64,000 nucleotides of DNA, taken from Escherichia phage ECP_WGS_SA1. Positions 3,726-44,847 of this stretch are shown one piece after another. Each line of letters begins with the position of its first letter. Positions within the stretch are counted from its first letter, which is position 1. Below the pieces are notes generated by a model, which was not told the DNA's origin, searched no databases, and saw only the letters and a program-made list of their open reading frames with translations. A program made the position numbers and the translations under genes. Location of the stretch: the sequence record PQ604604. One strand, written 5' to 3'.

Positions 3726-3836
3726 ATTTGCAGTACACTAATCAAAATACGACACATTTGGTCCACTAACTTTTCAAAGAAAAAGTCCTAGACAGTACCG
3801 TACTATTTTGTGCCCACAGTAAATTTGCAGTACACT
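3726..3836 (+). repeat. Two copies of ATTTGCAGTACACT (3726-3739, 3823-3836), a variant of the ATTTGCACTAT family
   Basis: Read directly. Confidence 0.7.
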
Positions 3837-3905
3837 CCTGCGCGGCAGACAAAATAAAGGGCCGCCACAGCGACCCACGATTCACGGTTAAATCAGCAAC
3901 ACCCA

Positions 3906-4286
3906 CTATTCGCTCTTATGGGCATCACCAAAGCCATCCGCAATCTGGCTGATCAATGATTCAATGGACACAGTTTTACCAATTGATCGAGCGGTAATAG
4001 CAAGCATATTATCAATCAAACCATGATTGGATGCATATGATCCAGGTTTTGAATCATCTTCATGACAACCAAAAAGCTGGTCGCGAAGACTTTCAAGAGA
4101 ACGCTCAATATTTTCCAGCTTCTCTTCTAAATCAGATTGGCGACGTAAAACCCATGTTAAGTCGCGGTTGCCGACTTCCAATCCATCAGAATCGCAAGAT
4201 GGAACGTCAATTTTGATACTTCCACCAAAGGCCATTCCGCTGCCTTTAGCATATGTGCCGTGAATAGAATCATTCTTATTTGACAT
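3906..4286 (-). CDS. Hypothetical protein, about 126 aa
   Basis: ORF 3906..4316; start moved to the Met preceded by GAAAGG. Confidence 0.45.
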   Translation of the reverse strand: MSNKNDSIHGTYAKGSGMAFGGSIKIDVPSCDSDGLEVGNRDLTWVLRRQSDLEEKLENIERSLESLRDQLFGCHEDDSKPGSYASNHGLIDNMLAITARSIGKTVSIESLISQIADGFGDAHKSE

Positions 4287-4359
4287 ATCATTACCTTTCA
4301 TGAGGGTGATTAACAATAACTATAATAAAGCCGCATAGCGCGGCATTCAAATCGGTTTG

Positions 4360-4572
4360 TTAATTGTAACGATTGGATTCATCAATCGATACCAACTGCG
4401 CAGGGTCGCCGGATACTGTCGCACCGATAACGCCCATCTGCTGAAAGAACTCTGAATAAACTTCCTTCCAGTATTTACGCGCTGCTTTCTGAGCCTGTCC
4501 TTTGCGCTTGAAGCTTTTACCTTTTACCTTGAAAGATGAAACGGTCGCTTGCCGCGCGATACTCCACCACAC
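4360..4572 (-). CDS. Hypothetical basic protein, 70 aa
   Basis: ORF only. Confidence 0.35.
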   Translation of the reverse strand: MWWSIARQATVSSFKVKGKSFKRKGQAQKAARKYWKEVYSEFFQQMGVIGATVSGDPAQLVSIDESNRYN

Positions 4573-5666: not shown

Positions 5667-7070
5667 NNNAGCGCCTTGAGTGAATTATTTNGCTGCNTTC
5701 AGCGCGACTATNTCTGNNNNNNNNNNNNNNNNNNNNNNNNNNNNNNNNNNNNNNNNNNNNNNNNNNNNNNNNNNNNNNNNNNNNNNNNNNNNNNNNNNNN
5801 NNNNNNNNNNNNNNNNNNNNNNNNNNNNNNNNNNNNNNNNNNNNNNNNNNNNNNNNNNNNNNNNNNNNNNNNNNNNNNNNNNNNNNNNNNNNNNNNNNNN
5901 NNNNNNNNNNNNNNNNNNNNNNNNNNNNNNNNNNNNNNNNNNNNNNNNNNNNNNNNNNNNNNNNNNNNNNNNNNNNNNNNNNNNNNNNNNNNNNNNNNNN
6001 NNNNNNNNNNNNNNNNNNNNNNNNNNNNNNNNNNNNNNNNNNNNNNNNNNNNNNNNNNNNNNNNNNNNNNNNNNNNNNNNNNNNNNNNNNNNNNNNNNNN
6101 NNNNNNNNNNNNNNNNNNNNNNNNNNNNNNNNNNNNNNNNNNNNNNNNNNNNNNNNNNNNNNNNNNNNNNNNNNNNNNNNNNNNNNNNNNNNNNNNNNNN
6201 NNNNNNNNNNNNNNNNNNNNNNNNNNNNNNNNNNNNNNNNNNNNNNNNNNNNNNNNNNNNNNNNNNNNNNNNNNNNNNNNNNNNNNNNNNNNNNNNNNNN
6301 NNNNNNNNNNNNNNNNNNNNNNNNNNNNNNNNNNNNNNNNNNNNNNNNNNNNNNNNNNNNNNNNNNNNNNNNNNNNNNNNNNNNNNNNNNNNNNNNNNNN
6401 NNNNNNNNNNNNNNNNNNNNNNNNNNNNNNNNNNNNNNNNNNNNNNNNNNNNNNNNNNNNNNNNNNNNNNNNNNNNNNNNNNNNNNNNNNNNNNNNNNNN
6501 NNNNNNNNNNNNNNNNNNNNNNNNNNNNNNNNNNNNNNNNNNNNNNNNNNNNNNNNNNNNNNNNNNNNNNNNNNNNNNNNNNNNNNNNNNNNNNNNNNNN
6601 NNNNNNNNNNNNNNNNNNNNNNNNNNNNNNNNNNNNNNNNNNNNNNNNNNNNNNNNNNNNNNNNNNNNNNNNNNNNNNNNNNNNNNNNNNNNNNNNNNNN
6701 NNNNNNNNNNNNNNNNNNNNNNNNNNNNNNNNNNNNNNNNNNNNNNNNNNNNNNNNNNNNNNNNNNNNNNNNNNNNNNNNNNNNNNNNNNNNNNNNNNNN
6801 NNNNNNNNNNNNNNNNNNNNNNNNNNNNNNNNNNNNNNNNNNNNNNNNNNNNNNNNNNNNNNNNNNNNNNNNNNNNNNNNNNNNNNNNNNNNNNNNNNNN
6901 NNNNNNNNNNNNNNNNNNNNNNNNNNNNNNNNNNNNNNNNNNNNNNNNNNNNNNNNNNNNNNNNNNNNNNNNNNNNNNNNNNNNNNNNNNNNNNNNNNNN
7001 NNNNNNNNNNNNNNNNNNNNNNNNNNNNNNNNNNNNNNNNNNNNNNNNNNNNNNNNNNNNNNNNNNNNNN
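5667..7070. other. Almost fully masked block of N; adjacent N-runs at 5322-5605, 7194-7307 and 7354-7611
   Basis: Read directly. Confidence 0.99.
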
Positions 7071-8009
7071 NAGCAATTGTCCGTCTGCAACGACTTCATA
7101 CGGTTGAATATATGCACGACTGTCACGNAAGTGAAAATCACCAACNCCATAGTTCATNACACCGTTCATGCTTGGGCCAACGGTGCCTGTGTTNNNNNNN
7201 NNNNNNNNNNNNNNNNNNNNNNNNNNNNNNNNNNNNNNNNNNNNNNNNNNNNNNNNNNNNNNNNNNNNNNNNNNNNNNNNNNNNNNNNNNNNNNNNNNNN
7301 NNNNNNNTGATCCTGTGCCNCCCATGGAAGTTGGGACGATGCTTTGATCAGCNNNNNNNNNNNNNNNNNNNNNNNNNNNNNNNNNNNNNNNNNNNNNNNN
7401 NNNNNNNNNNNNNNNNNNNNNNNNNNNNNNNNNNNNNNNNNNNNNNNNNNNNNNNNNNNNNNNNNNNNNNNNNNNNNNNNNNNNNNNNNNNNNNNNNNNN
7501 NNNNNNNNNNNNNNNNNNNNNNNNNNNNNNNNNNNNNNNNNNNNNNNNNNNNNNNNNNNNNNNNNNNNNNNNNNNNNNNNNNNNNNNNNNNNNNNNNNNN
7601 NNNNNNNNNNNGATGCACCAGCATTTGCTGATTGATGATATTGACCAAACCATGAACCAGTCAAGGCATTGAGATTTATTCCGTTAGGAATCTCTCCAAA
7701 GTTTCGGACAGTACCCGTCAAAGTTGCGGCAGTGGTTCGAATAGAAAGCATGTCGCCAGCCGCCCATGCACGCGCTGCAGTTCCTTCCTGTGCACGCTGC
7801 ACGGTCAGGACGTTTCCAACAACGGCTGTTACTGTGACGATTTCGAATTGGAGGCCTGTTGCGGCGTCAACGATTGTCGCCACTACACGCTCGTTTGCGC
7901 CCAAGGTCGGAAAGCCCGACCCTGAGCGAATTGTGATTGTGGTGTCTGAAGTCGTCGTTGGCTGAGCGAGCGCGACCTCAAAGTTGTTTTTGAATATTAG
8001 CCTTGGCAT
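5685..8009 (-). CDS. Putative tail fibre or receptor-binding-like protein; largely masked by N, 3' end uncertain
   Basis: Long ORF with GAGGA upstream of the ATG at 8009; readable N-terminal 130 aa is rich in T/S/G/V as in phage fibre N-termini. Confidence 0.4.
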   Translation of the reverse strand: MPRLIFKNNFEVALAQPTTTSDTTITIRSGSGFPTLGANERVVATIVDAATGLQFEIVTVTAVVGNVLTVQRAQEGTAARAWAAGDMLSIRTTAATLTGTVRNFGEIPNGINLNALTGSWFGQYHQSANAGAXXXXXXXXXXXXXXXXXXXXXXXXXXXXXXXXXXXXXXXXXXXXXXXXXXXXXXXXXXXXXXXXXXXXXXXXXXXXXXXXXXXXXXXADQSIVPTSMXGTGSXXXXXXXXXXXXXXXXXXXXXXXXXXXXXXXXXXXXXXNTGTVGPSMNGXMNYXVGDFHXRDSRAYIQPYEVVADGQLXXXXXXXXXXXXXXXXXXXXXXXXXXXXXXXXXXXXXXXXXXXXXXXXXXXXXXXXXXXXXXXXXXXXXXXXXXXXXXXXXXXXXXXXXXXXXXXXXXXXXXXXXXXXXXXXXXXXXXXXXXXXXXXXXXXXXXXXXXXXXXXXXXXXXXXXXXXXXXXXXXXXXXXXXXXXXXXXXXXXXXXXXXXXXXXXXXXXXXXXXXXXXXXXXXXXXXXXXXXXXXXXXXXXXXXXXXXXXXXXXXXXXXXXXXXXXXXXXXXXXXXXXXXXXXXXXXXXXXXXXXXXXXXXXXXXXXXXXXXXXXXXXXXXXXXXXXXXXXXXXXXXXXXXXXXXXXXXXXXXXXXXXXXXXXXXXXXXXXXXXXXXXXXXXXXXXXXXXXXXXXXXXXXXXXXXXXXXXXXXXXXXXXXXXXXXXXXXXXXXXXXXXXXXXXXXXXXXXXXXXXXXXXXXXXXXXXIVALXAXK

Positions 8010-8047: not shown

Positions 8048-8389
8048 TTAATTTCTTTTGAGAGGAATATGACGGTTGCTGTCATTATTTGGTTTAATAA
8101 TGAGCATAAAAACGATTAGAAAGATGATGGCTGATATACTTAATTCAATCAGAGCGGCTTGAGATATGGATTGGTCTTCGTGATACTGCTTTTGCATTTC
8201 CGCTTTCTTCTGAGCGCAAACTTCAGGTGATATATAATCGCCTTTTGAGTTGCCATAATAAATCTCGCCATTCTCAGAAATAAGTCTGCCGCAAATATCA
8301 GTTTCAGCCTTTGCGCTTGACATCATAATGACGGTGCCGATGATAGCGGCAATTGTCCAGATTAGCAGTTGTGATAAAGTGTTGTTCAT
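8048..8389 (-). CDS. Small membrane protein, about 113 aa, hydrophobic segments at both ends
   Basis: Internal Met of ORF 8048..8623 preceded by AAGAGG. Confidence 0.45.
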   Translation of the reverse strand: MNNTLSQLLIWTIAAIIGTVIMMSSAKAETDICGRLISENGEIYYGNSKGDYISPEVCAQKKAEMQKQYHEDQSISQAALIELSISAIIFLIVFMLIIKPNNDSNRHIPLKRN

Positions 8390-8819: not shown

Positions 8820-9030
8820 TTTCTTTCCACTCCACAAATGCACTTCCACTTGTTTCTCTATTTAGCAGGTATCTGCCGCGCATTCCATGAAGGCTGAACT
8901 CAACCGTCGATGGATTAGATTTTGAAAGCCACATCGCTTGACCGTCGAACGGTCCGCCAACGCATGTGTATTTAGCCTTTGGCTCACTCCTTTTGGGTCG
9001 CTTTGCCCGCTCTTTGATTGATAGTCTCAT
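8809..9030 (-). CDS. Hypothetical protein, 73 aa
   Basis: ORF; stop/start packing with neighbours. Confidence 0.35.
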   Translation of the reverse strand: MRLSIKERAKRPKRSEPKAKYTCVGGPFDGQAMWLSKSNPSTVEFSLHGMRGRYLLNRETSGSAFVEWKENGK

Positions 9031-9245
9031 CAGTCTTCACCTTGAGATTCCAGACAAGTAAGAACAAGCCACGTCATCGGAAGAATCAAAACCAGAGAAA
9101 TAAGGGACCAGATGGACCAGCACAAGATGACAGACTTGAATGTGTGAACGTCGCCAAACGCAGCAGTGAAACAAAATCCCATCACGAAAGCAAGCACAGT
9201 GGAGTGATTATCAATAGCTTTGATGGCACGGTCAATGAGTTTCAT
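9030..9245 (-). CDS. Small protein with two predicted transmembrane segments, 71 aa (holin-like topology)
   Basis: Two hydrophobic stretches and a charged C-terminus in the translation. Confidence 0.4.
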   Translation of the reverse strand: MKLIDRAIKAIDNHSTVLAFVMGFCFTAAFGDVHTFKSVILCWSIWSLISLVLILPMTWLVLTCLESQGED

Positions 9246-35541: not shown

Positions 35542-37326
35542 ATGCCAACACTTATTAACAGACCTTTCGCGCAAAGCGGTGATGTATCCGTGGTGCCGGA
35601 TGCAAGCCCAAGCGGTTATGTAAACTTCCAGCGCGGCTACACCCCTGACTATGCGCTTGCTCTGGAGGCTGGAAACGTCGCCGCGAAAGCTGTTGAGCGC
35701 GAATCGATGAACTGGTTGCTGAATTTGATCACAGACAACCTTATGTTTATTCAAGATCATGGCGCTCAACAATATTTCTCTTCTGACTTGAAGCCGGATG
35801 GATACCCGAAAAATGCCATCGTTGTCAGCAACTCTGGAACGCCTTCAGCACCTGAGTGGCGCATCTTTCAGAGCGTGGTCGACGGCAACACAAGCGCCGT
35901 ACCAGCTAACGGAGAAACGGAATCTTGGCAGGAATTAACACTGCCCAGCGAAGCGCGAAAATACATTCCGATGCCTGCTGGCGGCGATGCGCAAAACCCG
36001 TACTTTGTTCGCGGATTGATTTCAAGTTTTGTGGACTTCGATAACATCACGACATCCACAACTATCGTCATTCAATCCGATGCCGTCGCCGCTCTGTGCT
36101 CTAACATCCCGAATGCGGTTGGCGCAACGAAGGTTGCAGGTCGACTGCAGGTCTGCGCTTGGCAGGTCGATGCGCAAACCTTTGCCTTGCAGCAATATAC
36201 ATCAATGAATGGCTATTTGTTTACTCGCTCTTATACTTCTGGTGCTTGGAGTGCTTGGATTCAAAATGCCACTGTTCAAGATGTGCAAATTGGAACGCCG
36301 AATCTTGCATCAGGTAAAGGCGCGCAAGATATAATTCTCACCGTTCCAGCAGGGTATTCATGGCCTCCGTCAGCAGGTAGTCGCCTGACAATCGTCAATG
36401 ATGTAACGACTACCGGACCTGTCACCGTGACCATTGGTGTAAACAAAGTTGCCGTTCTTGGATTCGACGGCGGCGAGTTGCCAGCTGGCGCTATCGTAGG
36501 ATTGCTGCCATTCACCATCATTTATGACGGAACTGTTTGGCGTCTCCTTCAGGCGTTTGGCGCGGCGCAAATCGGTGTTGATGCTACTGAGCCGCAACAG
36601 TTTGTTACNNNNNNNNNNNNNNNNNNNNNNGCTGCGAAGTTGATCACTATGGGTGATGTGTTCGAAGTCGGTGAGACTCGATTCCTGACAAACGGGACCA
36701 ACCCAAATACCAAACTGGGTGCTTACGGTCAGGTATGGACGAGACTGCCTGATAACATGGTGATTCGCACGTCCGGCACGGCACGAAACGGTCTTGCCAC
36801 TGGCGGCGCGGACTCTGTTACTCTTACCGCCGCCATGCTTCCTCTCCACAATCACAGCGTGAACATTACCACGCGCCAGAGCGGACCATGGTCCAATACC
36901 ACTGGAGATGCAGGCAATCACAACCACACAGGCGATACAAGCCAAAACGGCGCTCACGTACACGGTATGGATGCNNNNNNNNNNNNNNNNNNNNNNNNNN
37001 NNNNNNNNNNNNNNNNNNNNNNNNNNNNNNNNNNNNNNNNNNNNNNNNNNNNNNNNNNNNNNNNNNNNNNNNNNNNNNNNNNNNNNGATAACTACAAATA
37101 CAACACTTCAACTAATGGCAACCACGTCCATAATATTCAATCTTCTGGATCACACACCCATGGTTTGAATATAAANNNNNCTGGCAATCACAGCCATGGC
37201 TATACCCTTCCCGCTCACACTCACGATGTGGTCGGGAATACTGGCGATGCAGGACAGTCGGTGCCAACGGCTGTTGCGACTTTGCCGCGATACGTTGTTT
37301 TGAATGGCTGGTACAGAAGCGCATAA
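35542..37326 (+). CDS. Putative tail fibre protein with C-terminal histidine-rich HxH repeats; two internal N-runs
   Basis: Repeated GNHNH, HVHG, NHVHN, SHTHG, NHSHG, HTHD in the translation. Confidence 0.5.
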   Translation: MPTLINRPFAQSGDVSVVPDASPSGYVNFQRGYTPDYALALEAGNVAAKAVERESMNWLLNLITDNLMFIQDHGAQQYFSSDLKPDGYPKNAIVVSNSGTPSAPEWRIFQSVVDGNTSAVPANGETESWQELTLPSEARKYIPMPAGGDAQNPYFVRGLISSFVDFDNITTSTTIVIQSDAVAALCSNIPNAVGATKVAGRLQVCAWQVDAQTFALQQYTSMNGYLFTRSYTSGAWSAWIQNATVQDVQIGTPNLASGKGAQDIILTVPAGYSWPPSAGSRLTIVNDVTTTGPVTVTIGVNKVAVLGFDGGELPAGAIVGLLPFTIIYDGTVWRLLQAFGAAQIGVDATEPQQFVXXXXXXXXAAKLITMGDVFEVGETRFLTNGTNPNTKLGAYGQVWTRLPDNMVIRTSGTARNGLATGGADSVTLTAAMLPLHNHSVNITTRQSGPWSNTTGDAGNHNHTGDTSQNGAHVHGMDXXXXXXXXXXXXXXXXXXXXXXXXXXXXXXXXXXXXXXDNYKYNTSTNGNHVHNIQSSGSHTHGLNIXXXGNHSHGYTLPAHTHDVVGNTGDAGQSVPTAVATLPRYVVLNGWYRSA

Positions 37327-37334
37327 GGTGATTT

Positions 37335-37979
37335 ATGATTAATGCAAACGTAATATCTAAAGGGACCGGATGCAGCATGGATGTTGCAGAGAAATGGGTG
37401 GACCCTTTCAAGCAGGCTTGTGAGCACTACGGAATCAAAAGCAAGAATGCCATCGCGGCATTACTTGCAAACGTAGGAGTAGAGACGGGCAGCTTGAAAA
37501 CATTTGTGGAAAATCTCAATTACTCCGCTCAAGGTCTTGCCAATACATGGCCTAGTCGTTACAGCGTCAACGGTCGCTCTGGAAGCGCCCCGAACTCATT
37601 GGCCCTGTCTATTGCCCGTAAACCTGTGGAAATCGCCAATAATACATATGCAAACCGCATGGGCAACGGTTCAGTAGCATCTGGCGACGGTTGGAAGTAC
37701 CGTGGCCGTGGTGCCATTCAGCTGACTGGTAAGGCGAACTATGCGGAATATACGCGCCAATCAGGTTATGATGCATTGAACAATCCTGATATTCTGACTG
37801 AACCAAAATACATCGCTGACAGCGCGGCATGGTTCTTTAAGAATAGCGGCTGTATTCCTCTTGCGGATGCAGGAAATTTTGATTCAACCGTTAAGCGGAT
37901 TAACGGGGCCGCGCCGAACGCAGCAAACCACGGTGAGTTGCGAAGAAAGCGTTACAAAGATGCACTAGCAGTTATGTAA
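37335..37979 (+). CDS. Endolysin, glycoside hydrolase family 19 (chitinase-like)
   Basis: GH19 hallmark GRGAIQLTGKANY; no signal peptide. Confidence 0.75.
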   Translation: MINANVISKGTGCSMDVAEKWVDPFKQACEHYGIKSKNAIAALLANVGVETGSLKTFVENLNYSAQGLANTWPSRYSVNGRSGSAPNSLALSIARKPVEIANNTYANRMGNGSVASGDGWKYRGRGAIQLTGKANYAEYTRQSGYDALNNPDILTEPKYIADSAAWFFKNSGCIPLADAGNFDSTVKRINGAAPNAANHGELRRKRYKDALAVM

Positions 37980-37984
37980 GAAAA

Positions 37985-38011
37985 AGGCCCATATGGGCCT
38001 TTGTTTATTTT
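37985..38011. terminator. Rho-independent terminator (AGGCCCATATGGGCCT stem, T-rich tail), apparently bidirectional
   Basis: Perfect palindrome followed by TTGTTTATTTT; A-run on the other side. Confidence 0.65.
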
Positions 38012-38235
38012 ACGGCTTCAACTTGGACGGGCGGAGCGGAACTTGTATCAATGTCTGGTAAGTCGAAATAATAACCCGCCATACCAATTGCACCCACAAT
38101 CGCGGCCCGTGCCACCTTGTTGCTAATTGACTCCCCAATAAGCTTTACCAACAGGGATAAGATTTGAGACGTCAAAGCCTTTTTCAGCCTTTTGTTTTCT
38201 TCCAAATCTTTCTGCATAACTACCACCCATGTCAA
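38005..38235 (-). CDS. Small protein with one predicted transmembrane segment, 76 aa
   Basis: ORF with 4-bp overlap to the upstream gene. Confidence 0.4.
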   Translation of the reverse strand: MTWVVVMQKDLEENKRLKKALTSQILSLLVKLIGESISNKVARAAIVGAIGMAGYYFDLPDIDTSSAPPVQVEAVK

Positions 38236-38774
38236 CGCACTTCCTGTGTCTTAACATTACCTGAAGCATCTCTCAAGGGCAGTGGATAGTAGGCCATTTG
38301 GTAGTCTGATACGCCTTCAATGTGATAAAACACGATTACGTCTTTGCTGTTGATGAGCATGTTAACGACATCTGATTTATCTTCTGGAGTGAGTATTAGT
38401 GCGCCGCCTGTCCTGCTGTCTACTGCAACAGGGTATGTCTTGTCGACAAGGCCGCTGTCCAATGTATTATACCTGACAACGATTTCAGGGGCATCAACTT
38501 TTGCCATCGACATTCCGAACACAAACGACACGACCTGCCGACCGCGATCATTCATTACGCACATCTTTTCTTTGTCAAATCTTTCTTTTATTACGTCGTA
38601 TTTATTCCAGCAAAACTCAAATGACTGCCCATTGTTAAAATATCTTGTCAACACTTTTGCACTTCCATTCGGCGGCGTAAACATATTTTCAGCCGATGCA
38701 GTCTTGGTGAAGAATATAACTGTCAGCATAGCCATGATGATGATCAAAACAATCTTTAATTTGTTCGCTTTCAT
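38232..38774 (-). CDS. Secreted or membrane-anchored protein, 180 aa
   Basis: N-terminal signal-like sequence MKANKLKIVLIIIMAMLTVIFFTKTASA. Confidence 0.5.
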   Translation of the reverse strand: MKANKLKIVLIIIMAMLTVIFFTKTASAENMFTPPNGSAKVLTRYFNNGQSFEFCWNKYDVIKERFDKEKMCVMNDRGRQVVSFVFGMSMAKVDAPEIVVRYNTLDSGLVDKTYPVAVDSRTGGALILTPEDKSDVVNMLINSKDVIVFYHIEGVSDYQMAYYPLPLRDASGNVKTQEVR

Positions 38775-38850
38775 TATAATTCACCTTTTGATTATGAATA
38801 TTAATAGTATAGGCTTAAGGTTTTGAAAGTAAATACGCCGAAAGTAAATA

Positions 38851-38878
38851 AAAGAAAAGCCGGAAATTTCCGGCTTTG
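38851..38878 (-). terminator. Rho-independent terminator (AGCCGGAAATTTCCGGCT) downstream of the ligase gene
   Basis: Perfect palindrome followed by a T-tract on the minus strand. Confidence 0.6.
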
Positions 38879-38949
38879 TGTATACACTGTATATTAAATT
38901 CTATAAAACGTTGCGATAGATTATACGCACCAATTATTTATCCAGTGTG

Positions 38950-39927
38950 TTAAAAATACTCCATATCGGTAATATCACGGAAGCACTTATACAAGGCAGA
39001 GCGCGGCACGTCAACGATGCCAAAGTTAAAGAATTTATATGTCAGATACTTGTTGCGATAATTCTCGCGATTCTCCCAAAGCATTTTTCTCTCTGCCATA
39101 GGCATTGAACCAGCGGAGACGCGGAAAGGAATCATTTCACCTTTCTCATCAACATATTTTGGATTGACAACCACAAATGATCCAAGGTATCCTTTTGCAA
39201 CCAAGCCTTCAGCCTCTTTCGAACGCTTAGTGCGACCCAACTCATCAATGAATGCTTCGTTGTTGTTCTCCATCATCTCAACGAAGTCTATGATCAGCCC
39301 TTCTTCATCGGTCCACGGCTTGTCCTTCCACACATCACGTGACTTTGGCGTCGCGCGGCCATGCTTGTATTTGCCCGTCCAAGACTTGCCATACAAGCCT
39401 TCATAGCCAAGCTGGTCTGCTTCGATTTGCATCGCCGCGTACTGTTCCATATTTTCGATGTTTCGATATTCGAGAGCGCGAAGGAATGGGCGTCGACCAT
39501 GGTTGATGAGGTGCTGATTGACTTCAGCAACTCTAGCGCGATATTTTGCATAACGCTTTTCAAAAGGCAAATCAGGGTCGCTGAAGTCATCAAACACCCA
39601 CCATGTAAAGTTAGTGATTGCATCAGTGTTCATGCATGCAGTATAGGCCTGTTGCATGACGTTCTTGTCGTTCGGATTACCGTCAATTAGCTCTCCATCA
39701 AGTCCGTGAATCAATTCACCCAAGAATAGGAACTCTTTTTTGATTTGAATATTGCGCAGCGCCATGCCGGACGTGCCCATTGGCAAGTTGTCATACGCCA
39801 TCGCGCGTATGCCATCGACCTTGAAGGATAATCCGCAAGGCAGCGGCACATCTTCGCCGCGCTCGATGATTTGTTTACGCTGGCAGCCTTTCATTGGTTT
39901 TAATGCTTTGATTTCTCCTGCCATCAC
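38950..39927 (-). CDS. ATP-dependent DNA ligase
   Basis: Adenylation motif I KVDGIR near the N-terminus; later EGLVAK-like motif. Confidence 0.65.
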   Translation of the reverse strand: MMAGEIKALKPMKGCQRKQIIERGEDVPLPCGLSFKVDGIRAMAYDNLPMGTSGMALRNIQIKKEFLFLGELIHGLDGELIDGNPNDKNVMQQAYTACMNTDAITNFTWWVFDDFSDPDLPFEKRYAKYRARVAEVNQHLINHGRRPFLRALEYRNIENMEQYAAMQIEADQLGYEGLYGKSWTGKYKHGRATPKSRDVWKDKPWTDEEGLIIDFVEMMENNNEAFIDELGRTKRSKEAEGLVAKGYLGSFVVVNPKYVDEKGEMIPFRVSAGSMPMAERKMLWENRENYRNKYLTYKFFNFGIVDVPRSALYKCFRDITDMEYF

Positions 39928-40517
39928 TCAAACTCCTTATTCATCACTTGTTCCAGCGCATAGGCGTAAGACTGATCAGTCGATTTGATGAACGTTCCGT
40001 TGTACATCACACCTTTACGGTCCTTGATGTCTTCATAGGCGGCTTGAGCGCAATCAGACAGTCGAAGTCCATAATCATGCGCTACGCCGGAAAGATAATC
40101 GACTGCGGCCATTATGGTGACATCAATATCCATACTCTGATTTTTAGCAATGGCGTCACCAAGCCGTCCGAGAGTCTTTGCCAAGCGAAGGATAAACGAG
40201 TGAGGGTGGGCACCTTTGTCAGCGCAACCGCCGCCGTTGATGTCTTCGATTTTTGCACCATTTTGCGCGGCAAGAATAGTTAACACAACAAGGCAATCGC
40301 CGATGTCATCCTTGATTGCAGCTTGTAAATCACAGATGGCCTGCTCTGTATATCCGATTTCAGTGTCAAAGAACACAAGGTCATGTAATTGATCAACGTG
40401 GTCGGTCAACTCCCCAAACTCGCTAATAAGCTTCGGGTATTGGTCCTTAAGGTCGCAGCCTTGGATGATGTTACGGTCAGAAGCCCACTGGCGAATGTTT
40501 GCATAAATCTGGTTCAT
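39924..40517 (-). CDS. Putative MazG-like nucleotide pyrophosphohydrolase
   Basis: Acidic helical motifs (EFGELTDHV); weak call. Confidence 0.3.
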   Translation of the reverse strand: MNQIYANIRQWASDRNIIQGCDLKDQYPKLISEFGELTDHVDQLHDLVFFDTEIGYTEQAICDLQAAIKDDIGDCLVVLTILAAQNGAKIEDINGGGCADKGAHPHSFILRLAKTLGRLGDAIAKNQSMDIDVTIMAAVDYLSGVAHDYGLRLSDCAQAAYEDIKDRKGVMYNGTFIKSTDQSYAYALEQVMNKEFE

Positions 40518-41032
40518 TTATTTTCCTTTGATGCATTGAATTGATCGATTTTAATTTTAGCCTGATTATAAGTATCAATCAAGCTATTAACCTTCTCTTT
40601 TAATCGGTTTGTTTCTGCGGCGAACTGAACAAGAAAACTGACATCTTCTTCTGATAGTCCACAGTTTCCTTCTGGGATAGAGAGGCGTCCAGTGGTCGCA
40701 GAGTCGGGCATACTCCTGAGTAATTCACGGGAGCAGCTGAGTTGCTCGCGCAGCTTGATATTCCCAGACTTGTAACGAGCAATAGTGTCATCAGCAACCA
40801 GTTGCGCTTCCTGGCGACCCTTCTCATATGCCGATGCCGATTCAACCTGTAAAGATGCAATTTGCTCTTCGAGTGCATTTATCTTGTCCTTACGCTCATT
40901 AAGCGATGTCAGATATTGATTATCCTTGGCCAGTGATGCGTTGGTTTGCTGAAGGTCTTCAACGTATGATCCAGCGGCGAACGCGCCAACAAGGGCCAGA
41001 ATCTTCAGAAGCGGTACAATTCTTTCTATCAT
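40514..41032 (-). CDS. i-spanin (Rz-like)
   Basis: N-terminal transmembrane helix then predicted coiled coil; contains an embedded lipoprotein ORF. Confidence 0.6.
   Translation of the reverse strand: MIERIVPLLKILALVGAFAAGSYVEDLQQTNASLAKDNQYLTSLNERKDKINALEEQIASLQVESASAYEKGRQEAQLVADDTIARYKSGNIKLREQLSCSRELLRSMPDSATTGRLSIPEGNCGLSEEDVSFLVQFAAETNRLKEKVNSLIDTYNQAKIKIDQFNASKENK
40600..40827 (-). CDS. o-spanin (Rz1-like) embedded in the +1 frame of the i-spanin
   Basis: Signal peptide with lipobox LGISSC; mature part short, proline-rich, with a second Cys. Confidence 0.55.
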   Translation of the reverse strand: MRRVARKRNWLLMTLLLVTSLGISSCASNSAAPVNYSGVCPTLRPLDASLSQKETVDYQKKMSVFLFSSPQKQTD

Positions 41033-44425: not shown

Positions 44426-44847
44426 GACAATTCCTCTAAATACTTGATGATGTGATGNNNNNNNNNNNNNNNNNNNNNNNNNNNNNNNNNNNNNNNNNNN
44501 NNNNNNNNNNNNNNNNNNNNNNNNNNNNNNNNNNNNNNNNNNNNNNNNNNNNNNNNNNNNNNNNNNNNNNNNNNNNNNNNNNNNNNNNNNNNNNNNNNNN
44601 NNNNNNNNNNNNNNNNNTGACCTTTCTCAAATGCGCTCTTGAAAGGAAGAGTGGTGGCCCTTGCAGGCCACGATTCAAAGAACTTCATTTCAAGCCAAAA
44701 GCCGCGCCCTTTCCGGTTGGTGCCGATTACGTCCGGCACACCATCACCCGTCATTGATTCGATTCTTTGAAGCTTCAAGATTGATTCTGAATGCTTCTTC
44801 AAAGGCACGAATATGTATTTCTGTTCACGGTTATTTGTTGCCATCTG
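44422..44847 (-). CDS. Putative VRR-NUC nuclease; C-terminal part masked by N (44458-44617)
   Basis: GVPDVIGTNRKGRGFWLEMKF resembles the VRR-NUC core. Confidence 0.4.
   Translation of the reverse strand, partial: QMATNNREQKYIFVPLKKHSESILKLQRIESMTGDGVPDVIGTNRKGRGFWLEMKFFESWPARATTLPFKSAFEKGXXXXXXXXXXXXXXXXXXXXXXXXXXXXXXXXXXXXXXXXXXXXXXXXXXXXXXHHIIKYLEELS

Follow-up and report, generated by a model that had tools for sequence, protein, structure and literature searches.

How does a PB1-like phage bring its soluble endolysin to the cell wall, and does a gene pair that faces the endolysin gene take part? The question is raised by a locus in a 64,000-nucleotide (nt) stretch of Escherichia phage ECP_WGS_SA1 (sequence record PQ604604; the whole stretch is called the window hereafter), in which two minus-strand genes, here termed the large gene and the small gene, lie between the genes of the endolysin and an ATP-dependent ligase (Table 1). 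An earlier note on this DNA had described them as a terminator-bounded envelope cassette that could be either the missing holin or antiholin or a superinfection-exclusion module. Both genes and both terminators are real, conserved and already annotated in public records, the genes as "hypothetical". With regard to function, our tentative preference is that the small protein assists in lysis, partnered or modulated by the large protein in the periplasm, and that the two are not a holin and antiholin of the canonical kind; this is a possible reading that we would not yet call probable. Few phages see more therapeutic use than the PB1-like ones (Pbunavirus and relatives), and their holin was not reported by the annotators of phages Mansfield and MTx and carries only automated labels in Pbunavirus.

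The transcription unit and its boundaries

The two hairpins that the earlier note placed on either side of the gene pair are borne out by a consensus scan, RNA folding, conservation and public annotation alike, and at both sites a G+C-rich hairpin with a U-tract follows a stop codon. The first, just past the endolysin stop, has 8 pairs (5 of them G-C) and the tail GTTTATTTTA in the plus-strand scan, and it folds at -15.3 kcal/mol (z -4.4) on the plus strand and at -13.2 kcal/mol (z -3.8) on the minus strand. The second, located 3' of the ligase gene on the minus strand, has 9 pairs (5 of them G-C) and folds at -13.7 kcal/mol (z -5.8). For both hairpins, none of 200 shuffled sequences is as stable, and the two rank second and third among the 13 terminator-like scan matches in 8 kb, where 8.4 are expected by chance. 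Both terminators are annotated in the WFH, WFC and Mansfield records, the first on both strands in Mansfield and on the plus strand in WFH and WFC, and both are nearly unchanged in five other Wifcevirus genomes despite a synonymous divergence (dS) of 0.3-0.7 in the neighbouring genes.

Directly past the ligase terminator lies a sigma70-like promoter, both hexamers of which are identical in five other Wifcevirus genomes. A TATAAT-like -10 element occurs at the aligned position in phages Kyle and PA1 and one also lies upstream of gp48 in phage 14-1, and a tail resembling ...CCGG(G/C)TTTTC... follows the ligase gene in all three. Like the window, the Pbunavirus phages PB1 and 14-1 have the small gene (PB1 gp49, 14-1 gp48) between the ligase gene and a convergent endolysin gene, in the order ligase gene, terminator with a ...CCGGGTTTTC... 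tail, TATAAT element of its own promoter, small gene and bidirectional terminator facing the endolysin gene. The Pbunavirus unit differs in that it contains the small gene only, which encodes 83 amino acids (aa) and has a longer lysine/glutamate-rich tail. In 14-1, gp48 (35833-36084, minus strand), which is a homolog of the small gene of the window, alone makes up transcription unit TU021, which is flanked by a start and a termination site mapped by ONT-cappable-seq and is called possibly moron-like by the authors (PMC10914365). Because this homolog sits in its own transcription unit, independent transcription of the two-gene unit is experimentally supported by orthology, and by analogy with 14-1 we regard the pair as an autonomous, independently transcribed unit, much as the earlier note's term "insulated" implied. 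The type of promoter gives no expression timing, since a sigma70-type promoter is also annotated before a structural gene in PB1. In the Kyle locus, KYLE_60 (4270-4398, 42 aa, between the ligase gene and the large gene) reads across both the terminator and the promoter; it is probably a spurious open reading frame (ORF), and we do not count it as a gene.

The region 37300-39950 of the window gives megablast matches to 31 phage records. It is collinear with Escherichia phage vB_EcoM_WFH (WFH; MK373776, Wifcevirus) at the same coordinates, with 98.5% identity, and the two proteins of the pair are each 100% identical to the WFH products WFH_00050 and WFH_00049. Wifcevirus is now placed in the family Lindbergviridae (PB1-like), together with Pbunavirus, Kylevirus, Myosmarvirus, Carpasinavirus and others (PMC12451628). 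The position between endolysin and ligase genes given in the earlier note is confirmed. The endolysin start varies by record, being at 37377 (201 aa) in WFH and WFC and at an upstream ATG equivalent to 37335 (214 aa) in Mansfield, Bas98, SP13 and kaset. Masked bases, as runs of N, number 3,144 in the window and fall mostly in tail-fibre genes (e.g. 5717-7071, 36975-37086 and 44458-44617), with none within 37983-38950.

Table 1. Positions in the window of the two-gene unit, its control elements and other genes discussed.
Feature	Position	Strand	Remarks
Bidirectional intrinsic terminator	37983-38012	both	Common to the convergent endolysin gene (+) and the two-gene unit (-); stem AAAGGCCCATATGGGCCTTT at 37983-38002, T-rich tails on both sides
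Small gene (WFH_00049)	38005-38217	-	70 aa from ATG 38217; phrog_5165; ortholog (by sequence) of PA1-LRP, PB1 gp49 and 14-1 gp48
Shine-Dalgarno GGGTGG of small gene	38223-38228	-	5 nt upstream of ATG 38217; ribosome-binding site annotated at the Mansfield equivalent
Large gene (WFH_00050)	38232-38774	-	180 aa; predicted signal peptide (residues 1-28) and immunoglobulin (Ig)-like beta-sandwich of ~150 residues
Shine-Dalgarno AAGGTG of large gene	38782-38787	-	Upstream of ATG 38774; Mansfield ribosome-binding site at the equivalent position; kept in the genus
Sigma70-like promoter	38806-38833	-	TTTACT 38833-38828, 16-nt spacer, TATACT 38811-38806; 9 of 12 consensus matches
Intrinsic terminator of spanin-MazG-ligase transcript	38846-38877	-	Stem AAAGCCGGAAATTTCCGGCTTT at 38877-38856, then tail TCTTTTATTT
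Endolysin gene	37335-37979	+	Flanks the two-gene unit
ATP-dependent ligase gene	38950-39927	-	Flanks the two-gene unit
i-spanin gene	40514-41032	-	Three genes upstream of the unit, same strand, between DNA-metabolism genes
o-spanin gene	40600-40878	-	Embedded in the i-spanin gene; lipobox ISSC; annotated in Mansfield, missing from the WFH records
gp017	9030-9245	-	Product of 71 aa with two transmembrane segments, similar to class II holins in size and layout; opens a leftward gene cluster
113-aa ORF (MNNTLSQLLIWTIAAIIGTVIMMSSAKA...)	8051-8389	-	Unannotated in WFH; hypothetical CPT_Mansfield_015

The small gene and its relatives

The small protein matches phrog_5165, a family without an assigned function, at E 1.7e-7 (its relatives at 1.4e-7 to 6.9e-13), and it carries the core motif of PA1-LRP from Pantoea phage PA1 (Kylevirus), of which it is, as judged by sequence and gene order, an ortholog. 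The two are 52% identical over 52 aa by tblastn and have the common core ILSLLV(K/R)LIGE(S/T), and in PA1, as in the window, the small gene lies directly before the convergent endolysin gene with a gene for ~180 aa upstream. The 73-aa ORF next to the PA1 endolysin gene is the published PA1-LRP: it starts with MVRRRRR and ends with KVEQQK, an exact match to the primers in the paper. Induction of PA1-LRP in E. coli gave a 13-20% lower optical density, raised beta-galactosidase leakage and 24.65% dead cells versus 1.03% for the empty vector, and PA1-LRP fused to the endolysin showed stronger killing (PMC11538084). By analogy, these data provide suggestive but weak evidence for a lysis role of the small protein. 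The same paper, which puts PA1 in Chaseviridae whereas GenBank puts it in Kylevirus, did not recognise the family-wide distribution of PA1-LRP or its upstream partner gene (PMC11538084).

A tblastn search with PB1 gp49, which is 37.7% identical to its Wifcevirus orthologs over 53 aa, finds the small gene in 331 phage records, 292 of them from Pseudomonas phages and the rest mostly from Escherichia, Serratia and Pantoea phages; copies also occur in metagenomic relatives. We inspected loci in five genera of Lindbergviridae (Pbunavirus, Wifcevirus, Kylevirus, Myosmarvirus and Carpasinavirus), and at every one of them the small gene is the last leftward gene and is convergent with the endolysin gene. 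The locus of Xanthomonas phage Carpasina holds an unannotated phrog_5165/LRP ORF (VARRKKPVKL...LLIKLVGESVKGRLLRAALIG..., at ~3932-4177 on the plus strand of that locus) between gp33 and the endolysin gene. Both genes of the pair are under strong purifying selection: the ratio of nonsynonymous to synonymous substitution rates (dN/dS) is 0.02-0.06 for the small gene and 0.09-0.13 for the large gene, and for the window versus WFC, Bas98 and SP13 it is 0.02 and 0.09-0.13, respectively.

The earlier note had given the small product 76 aa and its gene a 4-bp overlap with the large gene. Both properties hinge on TTG 38235, the start of the longest ORF version (38005-38235), and we drop this start, with the overlap being an artefact of having chosen the longest ORF. 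Instead, the small gene most likely starts at ATG 38217, which is preceded by its own Shine-Dalgarno sequence and is used in every public annotation, and the orthologs in four other genera start at the aligned methionine, leaving a gap of 15-55 nt to the upstream stop codon.

The small protein consists of a charged, usually basic N-terminus, an amphipathic helix, a loop with an invariant G-E...R pattern, a second helix rich in Gly, Ala and Ser, and a variable acidic/proline-rich tail. In nine sequences from the five genera, the core reads (I/L)(L/I)xxL(V/I)(K/R)(L/I)xGE(S/T)xKxxxxR, and residues L15, G28, E29 and R37 are invariant. The second helix shows the small-xxx-small spacing typical of membrane helix packing. 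On the other hand, the designation "single-pass membrane protein" in the earlier note is not secure, because the hydrophobicity is marginal on both of the crude scales that we applied: the 19-residue Kyte-Doolittle maximum is 1.23 against a threshold of 1.6, and the best helix sums to +7.4 kcal/mol on the Hessa scale, on which the i-spanin anchor of the same genome reaches +4.0 and clear membrane segments -3.0 to -0.65 kcal/mol. By the threshold that we applied, MTx_060 and Carpasina gp34 do not qualify as clear membrane proteins.

The exported beta-sandwich protein

The 180-aa protein with a signal-like N-terminus described in the earlier note is upheld. Its N-terminus has the three parts of a Sec signal, namely the basic stretch MKANKLK, a 15-residue hydrophobic core (Kyte-Doolittle 3.27) and small residues at -3 and -1 in TKTASA|EN, and in each of the 13 family members a hydrophobic N-terminal segment precedes a site with small residues. 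The product is, therefore, very likely exported. The alignment of these 13 sequences shows the invariant residues C55, C72, Y102, N103, D106, Y114, E131, D132, S143, Y150 and P164, and the presence of two invariant cysteines in an exported protein suggests a C55/C72 disulfide.

Profile searches return very few relatives of this protein: the exhaustive search of 1.84 billion representatives gives 6 proteins at E up to 0.001 and no bacterial homolog, and a search of a larger collection gives 15 relatives. One of the 6, a 1250-aa match (P0011), is a repeat protein and probably spurious, and it is not regarded as a member. The protein has no significant match in Pfam, PHROG (best E 0.011), NCBIfam, PADLOC or PDB sequences. 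AlphaFold2 with a 4-sequence alignment yields an unusable model (predicted local distance difference test score, pLDDT, 42.7), and we therefore rely on the model built from the 13-sequence profile-search alignment (pLDDT 87.8, predicted template-modelling score 0.76), in which a signal helix precedes a ten-strand sandwich with one helix at residues 130-141. The fold class is thus confidently predicted to be an Ig-like beta-sandwich.

Foldseek finds no match to this model in the PDB at E < 0.001, and the top PDB matches (a Kir channel and TEAD domains) have template-modelling (TM) scores of 0.15-0.26 and merely reflect a generic Ig-like sandwich. The closest sensible solved fold is that of IalB from Bartonella (PDB 3dtd), a periplasm-facing beta-sandwich, with a Foldseek probability of 0.98 and TM scores of 0.40/0.48 over 130 columns but an E value of only 0.04; none of the 13 family members matches Pfam IalB (PF06776) at E up to 1. 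This likeness says nothing on mechanism, because the molecular function of IalB is itself unclear. Among predicted viral structures, the model matches the MTx ortholog at E 3.3e-7 and two uncharacterised proteins, one from RB16 (E 3.9e-4) and one of 253 aa from Carpasina (E 2.7e-3), the latter of which we take to be gp33, the sole 253-aa product at that locus. Carpasina gp33 occupies the same genomic position as the large gene and has an N-terminal membrane anchor and linker instead of a cleavable signal. Taken together, the predicted fold would place the 180-aa protein at the periplasmic face of the inner membrane, without indicating a mechanism.

The large gene precedes the small gene in all inspected loci of Wifcevirus, Kylevirus, Myosmarvirus and Carpasinavirus and in four metagenomic contigs, and in none of the inspected loci does it occur without the small gene. 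Sequence searches place its product in a tiny family of exported, predicted beta-sandwich proteins, all found in these phages or in metagenomic contigs sharing their gene order. The endolysin has been swapped at a fixed position in two metagenomic relatives, with the convergent gene (3803-4255 on the minus strand of L017 and 3822-4277 on the minus strand of L018) encoding an endolysin of the phrog_90 type of ~150 aa, not GH19, and the pair being kept. Retention of the pair beside a different endolysin class argues against an endolysin-specific partner, chaperone or inhibitor, and would fit a generic function at the membrane or envelope.

The holin question and competing readings

The endolysin of the window (phrog_181 at E 5e-69, GH19 at E 2e-7) has no hydrophobic N-terminus, signal, signal-anchor-release or transmembrane segment. 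An endolysin without a signal needs a membrane lesion to reach the cell wall, and this one, lacking signal and transmembrane segments, needs help across the membrane. The earlier note was right that no obvious holin lies next to it: none is annotated in WFH or Mansfield, no recognisable membrane protein is encoded beside the endolysin gene, and the MTx paper reports that no holin was found. The spanin genes lie on the same leftward arm as the two-gene unit, and thus lysis genes do occur there; their operon also contains the MazG and DNA ligase genes, whereas the endolysin gene lies outside it.

When every ORF of the WFH genome is scanned for hydropathy, two strongly hydrophobic products stand out, both found in Wifcevirus only. 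One is gp017, which has no PHROG match and a weak, sub-threshold match to the YijD family; the other is the 113-aa ORF, which has an N-terminal signal or anchor, a ~55-residue loop with two cysteines, a C-terminal transmembrane segment (Kyte-Doolittle 2.9) and a basic tail. Judged by their sequences, these are better candidates for a canonical holin than the two-gene unit. In Pbunavirus, the multi-transmembrane PB1 gp10, which is labelled "holin" by an automated pipeline in some papers (PMC9583000), is specific to that genus; WFH gp019 and gp020, which lie next to the terminase gene, are not membrane proteins and are not counterparts of PB1 gp10. Because gp017, the 113-aa ORF and PB1 gp10 are each genus-specific, each genus may have its own holin. 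We found no multi-transmembrane protein common to the genera examined and just one small protein of possible membrane activity that they all have, the phrog_5165 protein.

These observations can be accommodated in a model in which the unit is a vertically inherited transcription unit of a virulent PB1-like myovirus. Transcription would start at the sigma70-like promoter behind the ligase terminator, pass through the two close-packed genes and stop at the bidirectional terminator shared with the endolysin gene. The large protein would be exported by the Sec pathway and either cleaved at ASA|EN or anchored by its N-terminus, and its Ig-like beta-sandwich of ~150 residues, probably disulfide-bonded, would act on the periplasmic side of the inner membrane. 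In the small protein, the charged N-terminus and the amphipathic helix would lie at the cytoplasmic face, the short Gly/Ala-zipper helix would insert weakly into the inner membrane, and the acidic tail would be periplasmic. We propose that the small protein may serve as a membrane-active lysis accessory that eases the path of the soluble endolysin to the wall, whether it disturbs the membrane directly or helps or times a holin specific to the genus, and that, in lineages with both genes, the large protein may partner or modulate it in the periplasm.

Several observations weigh against this model. Pbunavirus has ~280 nt of non-coding DNA in place of the large gene and manages without it; the unit lies apart from the late structural operon and is served by a sigma70-like promoter of its own; and neither protein resembles any lysis family. 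Hessa-scale sums for the small-protein orthologs lie at +6.3 to +8.9 kcal/mol, with the exception of the MTx type (+3.0), and the annotators of the Center for Phage Technology did not call the small protein a holin in Mansfield or MTx. Additionally, PA1-LRP showed no two-hybrid interaction with the endolysin, and the data on it are weak in that they come from fusions and 24-h end points, with no abrupt (saltatory) lysis and without phage genetics (PMC11538084). A bolder version, in which the small protein would be a conserved membrane-lesion or lysis-trigger factor of PB1-like phages, representing a new class of non-canonical holin that combines an amphipathic helix with a sub-threshold Gly/Ala-zipper helix, with the beta-sandwich as its periplasmic regulator in the enterobacterial and xanthomonad lineages, strikes us as quite improbable; if true, such a phrog_5165 holin class would account for the failure to identify a conserved holin in PB1-like phages.

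The same evidence must be set against other explanations. The two genes could be functionally unrelated passengers of one transcript, a soluble two-helix core factor (a transcription or replication regulator or an assembly factor) alongside an independent accessory periplasmic protein. This is somewhat unlikely in our estimation: the membrane leakage upon PA1-LRP expression, the small-xxx-small spacing of helix 2 and the transmembrane-like hydrophobicity in the MTx lineage count against a soluble factor, as does the constant company of the small gene against an independent large one, even though invariant or conservatively kept charges lie in and between the helices of the small protein (K/R24, E29, R37), the N-terminus is basic in most orthologs, hydrophobicity is sub-threshold, the small gene exists alone in Pbunavirus, and adjacency of phage genes can reflect descent rather than function. 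An exclusion or envelope-remodelling module in the manner of T4 Imm/Sp or P1 Sim, in which an early-made pair would block the DNA entry or the tail lysozyme of later related phages, is unlikely. T4 Sp plus Imm has the same general make-up of an exported and a small membrane-associated protein; the unit resembles these systems in this respect, in its host-type promoter insulated from the neighbouring operons and in being carried by a virulent phage, and the large gene, with 6 clusters in the 1.84 billion representatives and absence from Pbunavirus, is lineage-restricted as accessory exclusion genes often are. However, neither protein matches them in sequence or fold or matches any exclusion or defence family (PADLOC), and a small gene conserved in five phage genera on five host genera at the dN/dS given above, rather than accessory, would be unusual for exclusion; the alternative raised in the earlier note is thus not supported, with the misfit being less for the 180-aa protein.

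The other role raised in the earlier note, with the small gene encoding a canonical holin and the large gene its periplasmic antiholin after the fashion of T4 T/RI, is very unlikely, despite the endolysin neighbour, the missing holin annotation, the exported partner and the PA1-LRP phenotype. The small protein resembles canonical holins (lambda S105, S21 68 and T4 T) in its size, in the nearby endolysin unable to export itself and in the membrane damage reported for an ortholog, but its candidate transmembrane helix is marginal on the scales applied above, and it has no sequence relationship to them. Instead of lying in a lysis cassette with the endolysin gene for late co-expression, its gene belongs to a separate unit on the opposite strand. 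Moreover, its periplasmic tail would comprise only ~17-25 variable residues, no abrupt lysis was seen in the Pantoea PA1-LRP experiments, and better candidates exist elsewhere in the genome. Searches of Pfam, PHROG, NCBIfam and PADLOC give neither protein a match to a holin, antiholin, lysis, superinfection-exclusion or defence family, and for the 180-aa protein no antiholin of the T4 RI type is among the 50 Foldseek matches listed per library. Least likely of all is a horizontally acquired moron that benefits the host and not the phage, an idea raised for gp48 by the 14-1 authors (PMC10914365). The layout of promoter, gene or genes and terminator, which is experimental for the 14-1 ortholog, and a GC content (0.42 and 0.45 for the two genes) slightly under the window mean of 0.46 would suit a moron, but composition is not atypical, the phages are virulent rather than temperate, and distribution is not sporadic, with the unit being present in all 28 matched Wifcevirus records and at one conserved position across genera; strong purifying selection and the lack of bacterial homologs in the exhaustive search also speak against it.

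The genes and terminators had been annotated before, and the orthologous unit and the orthologous small protein had each been noted once in the literature. The present analysis links the 14-1 unit report and the PA1-LRP report to each other and to the window locus, corrects the start codon, extends the small gene across five genera, recognises a co-inherited exported beta-sandwich family with a confident model, and lists alternative holin candidates. The small gene, being conserved, endolysin-facing, on its own transcript and with a membrane-damaging ortholog, offers a concrete and cheap target for how PB1-like phages release a soluble endolysin, and the unit becomes a candidate exclusion module if it is dispensable for lysis. 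Since the BASEL Wifcevirus isolates now grow on an engineered K-12 host, the experiments are straightforward.

A stretch of ~400 nt within the unit (~38170-38560), which takes in the 3'-terminal two-thirds of the large gene and a 5' portion of the small one, is almost invariant across Wifcevirus, whereas divergence is much higher in the first third of the large gene and in the endolysin and ligase genes on either side (dS over whole genes is 0.26-0.31 for the large gene and 0.34-0.74 for its neighbours). This stretch could reflect recent recombination or a constraint at the nucleotide level.

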